From Candidatus Hydrogenedentota bacterium (lineage in GTDB: Bacteria > Hydrogenedentota > Hydrogenedentia > Hydrogenedentales > SLHB01): DNA of 34,636 nt. Where the stretch lies: contig JAWXCN010000022.1 of assembly GCA_034408725.1 (NCBI GenBank), positions 1 to 34,636 of the forward strand, read 5' to 3'. Below are positions 4,776 to 9,023 of the stretch, piece after piece. The notes under the pieces are model-generated. The model made no database searches, was not told where the DNA came from, and saw nothing but the letters and a program-made list of their open reading frames with translations. How positions within the stretch are numbered: position 1 is the first letter of the stretch; each line of letters opens with the position of its first letter. Both the position numbers and the translations under genes were made by a program.

Positions 4776-5552
4776 ATGTTGCTCGTCATGGACGTTGGCA
4801 ACTCGCATACGAAGCTCGGCTTGTATGACGGCGAGTCTCTCATTGCGCATTGGCGGCTGGCGACAACGTCGGCGCGAACGACAGACGAGCTGCGCATTAT
4901 GCTTACGAGCCTGCTCTCGCAGGACGACATATCACCACGGTCGATAACCGGGTGCTGCATCGCGAGCGTGGTGCCGCCGGTGAACCCGATGATCGAGGCG
5001 ATGTGCAACGTGATGTTCGGCGTAGCACCTCTATTCGTAGTGCCGGGCGTGCGCACTCGGATTACCATAAAGGTGGAAAACCCGAAGGAAGTCGGCGCGG
5101 ACCGTATCGTGAATTCCGTTGCGGCATCGGAAGCATTTGGCGGGCCGGTGGTGGTCGTGGATTTGGGTACGGCGACCAAGTTCGAGGTCATCTCCGAGCA
5201 TGCGGAATATCTTGGCGGGGTCATCGCGCCCGGCGTGCAGATTTCCGCGGACGCATTGTTCGATCGCTGCGCAAAACTGGCACGCGTAGAAATCATCACC
5301 CCGGACCATGTCATCGGCAAGGACACCGTATCGCACATTCGCGCGGGCCTGACGTATGGTAACGCGGGCATGGTGGACGGACTCGTCGCGCGGATTGCGC
5401 ACGAAATGCGCGCAACGCCGACAGTCGTGGCGACGGGCGGATTCGCCCCGTTGATCGGGCCCTTGTGCAGCCGGATCAATCACGTCGATCCGCTGCTCAC
5501 ATTGAAAGGGTTGCGCGCGGTATTTTCAAAAAATGAGAAGTCACTCGTATGA
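4776..5552 (+). CDS. coaX: type III pantothenate kinase
   Basis: Motifs DVGNS, SVVP, GADR, DLGTAT, GGVIAPG, ATGG; birA-coaX synteny. Confidence 0.95.
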   Translation: MLLVMDVGNSHTKLGLYDGESLIAHWRLATTSARTTDELRIMLTSLLSQDDISPRSITGCCIASVVPPVNPMIEAMCNVMFGVAPLFVVPGVRTRITIKVENPKEVGADRIVNSVAASEAFGGPVVVVDLGTATKFEVISEHAEYLGGVIAPGVQISADALFDRCAKLARVEIITPDHVIGKDTVSHIRAGLTYGNAGMVDGLVARIAHEMRATPTVVATGGFAPLIGPLCSRINHVDPLLTLKGLRAVFSKNEKSLV

Positions 5553-6166
5553 GGCGCGGACTTGCACTCGCGTGTGCGTTTCTCGCCGCGGCGTGTTCGC
5601 AAAAACCGGTGGAGACGACGGTTGCACCGGCCCCGGCGCAGACCGCGGAAATGCCTGCTGCTTCTCCCGACGCCGCGCCGGTGTCGACGCCTGGGCAAAT
5701 TCAGGAGCCTGAAGACTTTGCAACGATAGGCAACACTACCCTCCGGTTTTTTGATGACGTACTTGAAAGCGATCAACCCAAAACGCCCACCTTTGAATTG
5801 CGCGCGCCAAAACTTTCCATGACGGAAGACAACGTCTGGGTCGTTGAGCAGGCGACCGCAGTCGCGTTCGCCGAAGACGGATCGGAGACGACGTTCGTTG
5901 CGGGCGCGGGACGGTTTGATGACAACACAAAAACGGCGATATTGTCGGGCGGCGTGAACGTGACGTTCGGCACGCAGCAGGTCGCGTTGCAGGACATGAC
6001 GTGGTCGAACGAAACGCATACCGCTTCTTCGTCGAACCCGGTGACGGTGACCGACGGCGAGACCCGGCTGGAAGCGGCGAGTATGGAGTATCACGCCCAC
6101 ACCAAAACGCTTCTTCTCCACGGATTGTCCGGGACGGTCAGCATGAAGCGGGCACAGGCGGAATAA
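5549..6166 (+). CDS. lptC: LPS export protein LptC-like, with lipoprotein signal peptide
   Basis: Lipobox LAAA-C at aa 16, Pro/Ala linker, beta-rich domain (GRFDDNTKTAILSGGVNV, SSNPVTVTDG). Located upstream of the lptA-like gene and lptB. Confidence 0.7.
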   Translation: MRRGLALACAFLAAACSQKPVETTVAPAPAQTAEMPAASPDAAPVSTPGQIQEPEDFATIGNTTLRFFDDVLESDQPKTPTFELRAPKLSMTEDNVWVVEQATAVAFAEDGSETTFVAGAGRFDDNTKTAILSGGVNVTFGTQQVALQDMTWSNETHTASSSNPVTVTDGETRLEAASMEYHAHTKTLLLHGLSGTVSMKRAQAE

Positions 6167-7539
6167 TGCGCGCTAGCTGGACATGGCTGCTGGGGTGCAT
6201 ATTTTTTTGTGTGATGACACATGCACAGGAACAGACAAACGCGTTCGAGTATGTTGATATCACCAAAGGCGGGCTCGGCGAATTCGTGGACGGGCAACTG
6301 CGCCGCGTTACGGGGGGAGTCGAGCTTGCATTGCGCGCGGCCGATCCGGCGGCAAAGCCGATGGTGCTCAGCGCGCAAGACGTTACGTTTCTTTGGGGCG
6401 GCGATTCGTCTACGCCAAGTGGAATTCAGCTCAGCGGCGGTGTGAGCGTGGACGGCCCGCAGGGCCTGATAACGGCGAACCGCGCCGACCTGGACTTGAC
6501 CGCGGACACGTTGACCTTTTCAGGCAGCGTGCAGGGAAAATCGGAATCGATTGAGTCCTTTGCCGCCGAACGCATCGTGTACGACATGGCGTCCGGCAAT
6601 TCGGAAATGAGCGGGCTCTCCGCGCGCGGAATTAAGCTTGGCAAAGCCGGCGCGGCGGACGGTTTCTCTTCGATGAACATTGATCGCGCGGGTAACGTAG
6701 TCTCAAGCGGTGGCCAGGTGAGAACCATGCAGGGCGGCGTCGCGATTTCGCTTCAACCGCGCGGTGACGGGAAGCCGTTGGTGCTCCATGCGGGCGCGGC
6801 GACGTTTGCATGGAGCGGCGCGGGCGGTCAGCCCACGTCGATTGCGTTGCGTGGCGACGTGCGCGTCGATGGGCCGCAGGGCGCGATCAGCGCGGAGCGC
6901 GGCGATTTCGATCTCGCGAAAAAGCAGCTCGTGTTCTCGGGAAAAGTAAACGGAAGCCTGCCGCAGATAAAACGGTTCGATGCCGATACGCTGAACTACG
7001 CGATGGACGGCGGCGAAACCCTCATGACCAACGTGCGCGCGAAAGGCCTCGACCTTGGAACATCGGGGGAAAAGGAGACATCCAAAGACCCGAACGCGGG
7101 CAAGAGCTACACGAGCATGGACATCGAGAGCGCGCCGCAGGTTTCGCTCGAAGGCCAGAAGTTGAACTGGATGCGCGGAGGAGTAAAACTCGTGATGCAT
7201 TCGGCGGGCCCTGAAGAGAAACCCATGACGATCACTGCTCGGGAGATGTCGTTTGAGTATGGAGAAAGCGATGGCACGCGGCCCCAGCGCATCGTGCTCG
7301 ATGGCGGCGTGGACATGCAATCGCCGGAGCGGAACGTGACGTCGGACAGCGCGGCGCTGGATTTCGCGTCGAACACGCTGAAGTTTAACGGCAATGTCGC
7401 CATTGACACGCCCGACGTGAAGGAATCGACCGCGACGGAATTTTCGTACAACATCACAACGGGCCAAATTTCGTCGAAGGGTTTGAAGGCTAAAAGCATT
7501 CGCGTGTCCAACCCGGAAGAAGAAGAGGCGACCCCGTAG
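6166..7539 (+). CDS. LptA/OstA-like periplasmic protein with three tandem ~132-aa repeats
   Basis: ATG 6166 overlaps the lptC stop; Sec-type signal peptide; three alignable OstA-like units; occupies the lptA position between lptC and lptB. Confidence 0.7.
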   Translation: MRASWTWLLGCIFFCVMTHAQEQTNAFEYVDITKGGLGEFVDGQLRRVTGGVELALRAADPAAKPMVLSAQDVTFLWGGDSSTPSGIQLSGGVSVDGPQGLITANRADLDLTADTLTFSGSVQGKSESIESFAAERIVYDMASGNSEMSGLSARGIKLGKAGAADGFSSMNIDRAGNVVSSGGQVRTMQGGVAISLQPRGDGKPLVLHAGAATFAWSGAGGQPTSIALRGDVRVDGPQGAISAERGDFDLAKKQLVFSGKVNGSLPQIKRFDADTLNYAMDGGETLMTNVRAKGLDLGTSGEKETSKDPNAGKSYTSMDIESAPQVSLEGQKLNWMRGGVKLVMHSAGPEEKPMTITAREMSFEYGESDGTRPQRIVLDGGVDMQSPERNVTSDSAALDFASNTLKFNGNVAIDTPDVKESTATEFSYNITTGQISSKGLKAKSIRVSNPEEEEATP

Positions 7540-8283
7540 ATGGTGAACGCGGCCCCGGATGCGACGCTGTTGCGCGCGGAAGGGTTGGTAAAAAGTTTCA
7601 AGCGGCGCGTTGTCGTGAACGACGTGAACATTGCGCTCGCCGCGGGCGAGGTCGTTGGGCTGCTTGGGCCGAATGGCGCGGGCAAAACGACGACGTTTCG
7701 CATGGTGGTGGGTATGTTGCGGCCCAGCGCGGGCAAGATTTTCTTCAACAATACCGACATCACGCGGTACCCGATGTACAAACGCGCGCGCGCGGGTATG
7801 GCGTACTTGCCGCAGGAACCGTCGGTGTTTCGCAAACTCACGGTGCGCCAGAACCTGCTCGCGGTGCTCGAACATCTGCCCCTGCGGCGCGCGGAACGGC
7901 ACGCGCGCGCCGAAGAATTGATGAAAGACCTCAATATCACGCACCTCGCGGATGCGCCCGCGTACACGCTCTCCGGTGGTGAACGGCGCCGGACCGAAAT
8001 ATGCCGCGCGCTCGTGACGCACCCGAAAGTTTTTTTGTTGGACGAACCCTTCGCGGGAATCGACCCGATCGCCGTATCCGAGTTGCAGGACATCGTGCAT
8101 TCGCTCAAAGGCGCGGGAATCGGCGTGCTGATTACGGACCACAACGTGCGCGAAACGCTGGGCATCACGGACCGCGCGTACATTATTTTTGAAGGCAAGA
8201 TACAGGTTTCGGGCACGCCGGATGAAATTGCGAACAGTGAAATTGCGCGGCGTATTTATCTTGGCGAACGGTTCAGGATGTAA
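7540..8283 (+). CDS. lptB: LPS export ABC transporter ATP-binding protein
   Basis: Motifs [61 protein letters not shown]. Confidence 0.96.
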
Positions 8284-8300: not shown

Positions 8301-9023
8301 ATGCAACTCGAAATGGGGTTCGTCGCCCCCGCGGACCGCGAATTTAGACTTGAACGCGAGCTGGAATCTCTTTCCGGGATTCGGGTGAAGCTGCACGTCA
8401 CCGACAATACCCGCACGGTCATGTCGATGACGCCGGGCCGCACGTTCAAGGGCAAACGCGTGCGGCTCCATCACATGTTTCTGGATGCTGACAACGACGT
8501 GGTACGCGCCGTCGCCGCCTGGATACGGCATCCGCGCGCGTCCGGCGCGACCCCTGTACTTGATGCATTCATTCGCGACAACCGGCATCGCATGCGAAAA
8601 CGCACGGGCCGCGCAATCGCGATTGAAACCGAAGGCGCTCACCACAATCTCCAGGAATTATTCGACGCGGTGAACCGGCAACATTTCAAAGGCACAATCA
8701 CGGCGGCCATCACCTGGGGCCGCGCGGGATTCAGCCCTCGGCGGTACCAGCGCAGCATTCGTTTCGGGAGCTATACGGTGGACATCAACTTGATTCGGAT
8801 TCATCCGTCGCTGGATCAGGCATTTGTGCCGGCGTATTTCGTGCGGTTTATTGTGTTTCATGAAATGCTGCACGCGCATCTGGGAATAGAAGAAAGCGAA
8901 ACGGGCCGGCGCAAAATCCATACGCGCGCGTTTACGGCGCTGGAACGCGCATATCCCGAGTATGCGCGGGCGATTGCATGGGAACGCACGCCGGCAAACC
9001 TTCGGAAATTGCTCAGGGCGTAG
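8301..9023 (+). CDS. SprT-like/YgjP-type zinc metalloprotease domain protein
   Basis: HEMLH zinc motif, LFDAVNRQHF, ITWG, FGSY, IRIHPSLD and a downstream H..F; basic composition. Confidence 0.75.
   Translation: MQLEMGFVAPADREFRLERELESLSGIRVKLHVTDNTRTVMSMTPGRTFKGKRVRLHHMFLDADNDVVRAVAAWIRHPRASGATPVLDAFIRDNRHRMRKRTGRAIAIETEGAHHNLQELFDAVNRQHFKGTITAAITWGRAGFSPRRYQRSIRFGSYTVDINLIRIHPSLDQAFVPAYFVRFIVFHEMLHAHLGIEESETGRRKIHTRAFTALERAYPEYARAIAWERTPANLRKLLRA

Follow-up and report, generated by a model that had tools for sequence, protein, structure and literature searches.

A Hydrogenedentota gene between lptC and lptB encodes a probable LptA-type protein of three tandem jellyroll units

We analyzed a stretch of 34,636 nucleotides (nt) from the genome of a Hydrogenedentota bacterium (contig JAWXCN010000022.1; the whole stretch is termed the window) with respect to a gene resembling lptA, which encodes the periplasmic component of the lipopolysaccharide (LPS) transport pathway. 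The gene, here termed three-unit lptA, is located at positions 6166-7539 on the forward (+) strand, stop codon included, and encodes a protein of 457 amino acids (aa). The reading frame is open from position 6001, and the alignments of relatives begin at the ATG at 6166. Residues 1-21 (6166-6228, +) were read by eye as a signal peptide, with MRAS followed by a hydrophobic core and THA ahead of QEQ; the predicted local distance difference test score (pLDDT) was below 50 for residues 1-25. The genes are arranged in the order nadC, a biotin-ligase-family gene, coaX, lptC, three-unit lptA, and lptB. The lptC gene (5549-6166, +; 205 aa) was identified by TIGR04409 (39.3 bits, cut-off 38) and PF06835 (31.8 bits), and lptB (7540-8283, +; 247 aa), encoding the ATPase of the LPS exporter, by TIGR04406 (348.6 bits, cut-off 240). 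The ATG of lptC overlaps the stop codon of coaX, the TAA stop codon of lptC overlaps the ATG of three-unit lptA at 6166, and the ATG of lptB follows directly after the TAG stop codon of three-unit lptA. In a search for sequencing runs that contain positions 5549-8283, no RNA run was listed. An earlier note on the window had placed the gene between lptC and lptB, in agreement with the TIGR04409 match upstream and the TIGR04406 match downstream, and the lptC-lptA-lptB order is that of the LptA/OstA superfamily.

The same note had divided the protein into three alignable units. The translations of the three segments are 132, 131, and 133 aa long and could be aligned without large gaps. Units 1 and 2 were 39% identical (BLASTP E 4e-30), units 1 and 3 were 32% identical (E 3e-23), and units 2 and 3 were 27% identical (E 9e-17). 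The motif described earlier (GGV.L, KP, F.W/Y, P..I.L.G.V, L.F.G.V, Y) was seen in the unit alignments. A hidden Markov model (HMM) built from the units of the window protein and ten homologues found three full-length copies in the window protein, with bounds that deviate by at most 3 nt from those first proposed. Unit 1 comprises residues 27-157 (6244-6636, +; 173.5 bits, HMM positions 1-131) and unit 2 residues 167-296 (6664-7053, +; 163.3 bits), the latter being predicted all-beta with a pLDDT of 87-95. Unit 3 comprises residues 315-446 (7108-7503, +) and is the predicted LptD-docking end, as indicated by its structural matches to LptA and LptH and by the docking model described below. Linker 1 (6637-6663, +) consists of 9 residues in the GKAGAADG region, with a pLDDT of ~69 and 12-38% identity among orthologues. 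Linker 2 (7054-7107, +) consists of ~18 residues, is charged and predicted to be disordered (pLDDT <50 for residues 300-312), and has 6-35% identity among orthologues.

Identity to the orthologues was 40-83% in the units compared to 6-38% in the two linkers, which argues that all three units are under constraint. Tandem Repeats Finder gave 0 rows for positions 6100-7600, i.e., no repeat was found at the DNA level. The triplication is therefore old and visible only in the protein, and it is not an assembly artefact.

The whole protein scored above the Pfam cut-offs for both PF06835 (LptC; 32.6 bits) and PF03968 (LptD_N/LptA; 29.9 bits, cut-off 20.4). Both matches fall in unit 3, with residues 354-433 as the best stretch for PF03968. 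With an E-value limit of 1, eight PDB sequences were matched by a profile made from 27 units; every one of them was LptA, and the best had E 3.8e-4. Profiles of single units reached LptA in the PDB weakly (E 0.018 for unit 1 and E 0.1 for unit 2), and these matches pair the C-terminal half of the unit with the N-terminal part of LptA; they therefore show a shared hairpin motif and not the register. Two other identities were considered for the protein and rejected. It is not an LptC, since TIGR04409 gave 30 bits against a cut-off of 38, the N-terminus was read by eye as a cleavable signal peptide, and a separate LptC is encoded upstream. Nor is it an LptD, as PF04453 did not match it and the only PF04453 match of the genome is on another contig (C213).

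The AlphaFold2 model of the window protein was all-beta with a mean pLDDT of 82.3 and a predicted template modeling score (pTM) of 0.73. Values of pLDDT below 50 were found only at the signal peptide, at residues 300-312, and at the last seven residues. In VIA-align comparisons unit 3 matched E. coli LptA (2r1a_A; Z 15.1, root mean square deviation (rmsd) 2.2 Å, 117 residues aligned), LptH (4uu4; Z 14.7, rmsd 2.5 Å, 122 aligned), and LptC (4b54_A; Z 14.2, rmsd 2.7 Å, 118 aligned). Model residues 25-227 matched residues 22-204 of the LptD N-domain (5iv9_A; Z 13.3, rmsd 4.3 Å, 168 aligned), so that a single continuous solved jellyroll covers unit 1 and the opening strands of unit 2. The match to LptC 6mit_C (residues 284-449) likewise starts at the last strand of unit 2 and takes in unit 3. 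For the fold of unit 2 the support consists of its homology to unit 1 (E 4e-30) and of the all-beta structure predicted for it. Foldseek alignments of the whole model had LptD as top matches and were uninformative (TM 0.17-0.29, rmsd ~20 Å).

A relative in which LptC is fused to the three units (P0006, 647 aa) was modeled in the same way (pLDDT 81.4, pTM 0.71). Its N-terminal domain matched LptC 6mjp_C (Z 17.1, rmsd 2.2 Å, 131 aligned), its unit 1 (residues 208-335) matched E. coli LptA 2r19_A (Z 14.4, rmsd 2.4 Å, 116 aligned), and its unit 3 matched LptA 2r1a_C (Z 15.1). LptD 5iv9_A matched residues 74-273, across the junction between LptC and unit 1, and the long-sheet protein 6t69 matched residues 316-637 (202 residues, rmsd 3.3 Å). 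Because the alignments cross the unit junctions and pTM was 0.73 and 0.71, the models favor one continuous rod over separate beads. The proposal that the protein is an LptA-like jellyroll protein is borne out by the whole-protein PF03968 score, the match of unit 3 to LptA, and the all-beta model. On the question of groove versus beads raised with it, the models side with the rod, and the continuity of the groove is a prediction from models.

The genome from which the window is derived was assembled as 5.17 Mb in 280 contigs and is 92% complete. It was searched for a conventional single-domain lptA elsewhere, and none was found in this assembly. PF03968 matched only LptD (contig C213), three-unit lptA, and lptC; TIGR03002 gave no further locus beyond LptD; and three-unit lptA was the sole match to PF13100. 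A total of 58,634 six-frame open reading frames (ORFs) were also scanned with the unit HMM with its filters switched off (--max); only three-unit lptA was found, the next best match having E 2.9. A match of the C-terminal-domain HMM on contig C121 was considered as a second LptA and rejected, as it is an insertion in MraY (see below). Likewise, the protein query gave one locus per genome in the 14 genomes of genera g1, g17, and g18, which have a three-unit LptA without the C-terminal domain. The genome was also found to encode LptD (jellyroll plus barrel), LptF/G, LpxC (337.8 bits), and LpxK (238.9 bits). The lptD gene (L004:2-2614, G000:C213) is cut by the contig start, and the encoded protein has at least 125 residues of Pro/Ala/Glu/Lys-rich low complexity ahead of its N-terminal jellyroll.

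In the docking model with LptD, unit 3 was entered as residues 298-457 together with an alignment, and the N-domain of LptD as residues 120-345 of the contig-truncated frame without an alignment. The interaction prediction score from aligned errors (ipSAE) was 0.69 in three runs, compared to 0.00 for the best of three controls. Of 80 solved complexes 58 attained this mark, compared to 2 of 110 mismatched pairs. The runs shared at least 90% of their contacts, and the partner had a pLDDT of 75-77. In the modeled interface residues 432-451 of unit 3 pair with residues 128-146 of LptD as antiparallel edge strands. The edge-strand contact between LptA and LptD is a known textbook pair. Antiparallel edge pairing also accounts for how a junction between molecules can give way to a short hairpin such as linker 1, with its 9 residues. 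As for the other end of the chain, LptC was found in 29 loci, and in 9 of these it is fused in frame to unit 1. The docking to LptC and LptD that the earlier note had called for is thus supported by a model at one end and by natural in-frame fusions at the other.

A match to the protein was found in 126 of the 135 genomes of the phylum. The 30 best loci were inspected with the unit HMM and an LptC HMM, and the other 96 genomes are known from a single listed match each, not longer than 636 nt and located in open frames of ~99 to 532 aa. Three full units without internal stops were found in 15 of the 30 loci (genera g1, g17, g18, g16, and g2), two elongated units with duplicated internal hairpins in four, and one unit in nine; the remaining two are cut by contig ends and have more than one unit visible. 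All multi-unit genomes belong to the family-level group of the window. The repeat number had been predicted to vary within the lineage, and one, two elongated, and three units were all found. When 1.84 billion cluster representatives were searched with a profile, 853 proteins were obtained at E 1e-3 or better, and the top 18 were all multi-unit. The homologues with names were all from Candidatus Hydrogenedentes/Hydrogenedentota and are labeled "hypothetical protein", or "LptC" in the case of fused or partial forms, so the public-database labels of this family could be improved.

In the genus of the window LptC is fused to the three units in three of five genomes and split from them in two, the split forms being those of the window genome and its closest relative (76-77% identity). 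Seven of the 11 non-query homologues were LptC plus three-unit chains of 645-663 aa, and the own-genus fused proteins (P0005-P0011) lack the internal signal peptide. The product of the window lptC could be aligned, along its length, to the N-terminal region of these fused chains. A further homologue, P0014 (352 aa), represents an incomplete version of the fusion, with LptC and most of unit 1. Orthologues of 448-471 aa were found in other genera. The order LptC-U1-U2-U3 in the fusions corresponds to the direction of LPS flow. Among the 26 multi-unit family proteins scanned for architecture, six had three units only, 10 had LptC and three units, five had LptC, three units, and a helical C-terminal domain of ~130 aa, and five had LptC, two elongated units, and the same helical domain. 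Single-unit proteins were ~290-320 aa with the C-terminal domain and ~170-190 aa without it.

In a tree of 58 units from single- and multi-unit proteins the single-unit LptAs formed one clade (100/99), and no unit of a multi-unit protein fell within it. Clustering was mostly by position for units 1, 2, and 3, and the two elongated units clustered together (98/97). This clustering indicates an old duplication that has since been retained. In the sister group with elongated units (L026, L028, L029, L030; P0025-P0029) HMM positions ~57-100 are duplicated once or twice in the first of the two units. The length of the jellyroll therefore changes by added hairpins too, and not by whole units alone.

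Taken together, we consider it likely, with a probability of about 75%, that the gene is the sole LptA of a Hydrogenedentota bacterium and encodes one soluble periplasmic chain of three head-to-tail LptA-type jellyrolls derived from an old triplication. LptB2FG would pull LPS from the inner membrane and hand it to the lipoprotein LptC, the last strand of which would pair with unit 1 at its first strand. From there, LPS would slide through the groove of units 1, 2, and 3 in turn, and the last strands of unit 3 would pair with the first strands of the N-terminal jellyroll of LptD at the outer membrane. Hairpins inside one chain would take the place of the two LptA-LptA junctions that are intermolecular in E. 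coli, and the number of LptA modules per bridge would be set genetically to three, or to a multiple of three if the chains stack too. Passages of PMC10863985 give ~4 nm (~40 Å) for LptA and ~15 nm for an LptC-LptA-LptD bridge; by arithmetic from these published figures a three-unit bridge would measure ~23 nm. The earlier note had proposed a covalently pre-assembled bridge. The docking model and the LptC fusions fit this part of the proposal, while LPS binding, groove continuity, the actual docking, and a link to periplasm width are features that we infer.

Several observations weigh against this interpretation. The isolated units scored below the Pfam thresholds: units 1 and 2 gave 12.1 bits with PF03968 and 11.8 bits with PF06835, and unit 3 alone was below as well (19.8 and 15.8 bits). 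For PF03968 the scores of units 1, 2, and 3 were 12.1 bits, none, and 15.8 bits. The per-repeat recognition by LptA/OstA models expected earlier was thus not obtained for the units in isolation, and the three full copies were recovered with the family unit HMM. The LptA equivalog models were not reached by the protein either (TIGR03002 22.3 bits against 71.7, NF008143 14.3 against 234). A canonical LptA has a single domain of ~160 mature residues and scores with TIGR03002/NF008143. As these cut-offs were not reached and there are three domains in 457 aa, the protein is an architectural variant of the LptA/OstA superfamily and not a canonical LptA. Among the VIA-align matches listed for the window and P0006 models, no structural match was centered on unit 2 alone. 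The AlphaFold2 models are built on shallow alignments (11 and 14 sequences; 11 for the window protein), and the stacked jellyrolls may reflect LptA filaments seen in training; in the same way the docking score may be due to likeness to solved complexes. The disordered linker 2 (~18 residues) makes a hinge between units 2 and 3 possible. Since the assembly is a draft, 92% complete in 280 contigs, a second lptA could sit in the missing part. Finally, a one-unit LptA accompanies the same LptC in most of the phylum, so three units are not required for function in the phylum. The idea in the earlier note that the triplication may act as a ruler for a wider periplasm is speculative.

The hinge bears on an alternative that we regard as unlikely, in which the chain is hinged or partly off-line. 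One or two jellyrolls would then stand in line between LptC and LptD, while the rest would provide slack for envelope width, a spare docking site, or an LPS reservoir. Linker 2 is in its favor, being poorly conserved and predicted to be disordered, and so is the sufficiency of one unit in most relatives. It also resembles a speculation by Hicks and Jia, in passages of PMC6164715, that a variable number of LptA buffers changes in intermembrane distance. The pTM values of the three-domain (0.73) and four-domain (0.71) models, however, argue for defined relative positions. Moreover, structural alignments cross the unit junctions, all three units are similarly conserved, and the order LptC-U1-U2-U3 is constant in the fusions.

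It is still less probable that the pathway carries a different cargo, e.g., surface lipoproteins or another glycolipid, with the extra units adapting the slide. This has a precedent in LPS-less Borrelia, where an Lpt pathway with a lipoprotein LptC is proposed for surface lipoproteins, according to parts of a preprint (10.1101/2022.12.21.521298). The window genome, however, encodes LpxC, LpxK, and a two-domain LptD, and only a single Lpt-like periplasmic chain was found in it, so that a different cargo would leave LPS without another route. That the gene is an artefact, i.e., a mis-assembled or degenerating duplication with functionless extra units, could be suspected as the sequence comes from a draft of the metagenome type in 280 contigs, but the suspicion is very hard to sustain. 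The three-unit architecture was found without internal stops in 15 independently assembled genomes from five genera, and in 18 cluster representatives of the library of 1.84 billion proteins. In addition, there is no repeat at the DNA level, and it is the units that are conserved and not the linkers.

A soluble chain of three LptA-type jellyrolls, as preferred here, resembles E. coli LptA (YhbN; 2R19/2R1A) and Pseudomonas LptH (4UU4) in its jellyroll fold, its secretion to the periplasm, the position of its gene between lptC and lptB, and its C-terminal strand on LptD, the last as modeled here. It differs from them in that its sequence similarity is below the LptA equivalog models. It also has three domains per chain, whereas E. 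coli LptA is described in passages of three papers as one self-associating domain of unknown number (PMC6164715, PMC10863985, PMC10208570). The fold is shared with LptC as well (PF06835; PDB 3MY2, and 6MIT chain C; Z 14.2 and 13.6), and the LptC family gave the best Pfam score of the window protein (32.6 bits). However, the protein has no membrane anchor, a separate LptC is encoded upstream, and in the relatives LptC is fused ahead of the three units and does not count among them. Particular to this group are the soluble three-unit chain, the occurrence of split and fused forms in one genus, and the range from one to three units in one family-level group.

Single-chain bridge-like lipid transporters are known from TamB, YhdP/AsmA-like, and VPS13-type proteins, in which repeated beta modules form a long hydrophobic groove over an intermembrane gap. 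They are unlike three-unit LptA in belonging to another fold family with another cargo and in having no ABC transporter that drives transport through a jellyroll chain. A description of a tandem or fused LptA was not found in a full-text literature search whose scope excluded most subscription journals and supplements. The number of LptA molecules per LPS bridge was still stated to be unknown in passages from 2018 (PMC6164715), 2023 (PMC10208570), and 2024 (PMC10863985). A natural chain that fixes three LptA modules, or four jellyrolls with fused LptC, shows that nature makes use of bridges with several LptA modules, and the three-unit and LptC-fused chains are defined constructs for structural work on the assembled bridge. 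The one-unit, three-unit, split, and fused forms in close relatives offer a comparative test of bridge length versus envelope width, in which the multi-unit genomes, all from one family, represent few independent events.

The window LptC has an LAAAC lipobox-like motif instead of the transmembrane helix of E. coli LptC. It is probably a lipoprotein, and not bitopic as in E. coli, judged from its sequence. By eye ~45 Pro/Ala-rich residues were found between the motif and the single jellyroll, a likely tether, and the lipoboxes of LptC in the relatives were clearer, e.g., IAAC and VAAC. LptC of Borrelia is likewise predicted to be a lipoprotein in parts of the preprint cited above (10.1101/2022.12.21.521298).

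In most of the phylum LptA terminates in the helical domain of ~130 aa, which is missing from the window LptA. The domain has the motifs DWP, PSPGKR, FYD..AW, and RLNR.LL.AAYP, and no Pfam match was found for it. In the window genome the domain is present (E 2.6e-23) as an insertion in MraY (493 aa; G000:C121:2409-3890, L042). When this insert was used as the query, matches were found in 123 of the 135 genomes, mostly in frames of ~500 aa. In the three-unit genera g1, g17, and g18 the copy in MraY is the sole copy of the domain.

We tentatively propose, as a doubtful extension, that Hydrogenedentota constitute a natural series of genetically fixed bridge lengths (one, two elongated, or three jellyrolls, with or without covalent LptC and with or without the C-terminal helical domain) in which the number of modules tracks the intermembrane distance. 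The helical domain shared by LptA and MraY would in this proposal perhaps couple LPS export to peptidoglycan precursor synthesis. If the series is real, the genomes of this phylum would give direct access to the number of LptA units that reach across a periplasm.

An ORF of 240 aa (8301-9023 of the window, +) lies directly downstream of lptB and did not match any Pfam family at E 1e-5 or better. Two of the fusions of LptC and three units, P0019 (L024, genome G082) and P0022, were found to have a hydrophobic, signal-peptide-like stretch with AHAQ or VHAQ at its end between LptC and unit 1, with no stop in frame; these may be true fusions, recent read-throughs, or two products of one frame. Two more distant metagenomic proteins, P0112 (615 aa) and P0154 (983 aa), were found to contain five to seven LptA/LptC-type stretches, with PF06835 at 97 bits in seven stretches and PF03968 at 127.6 bits in five.

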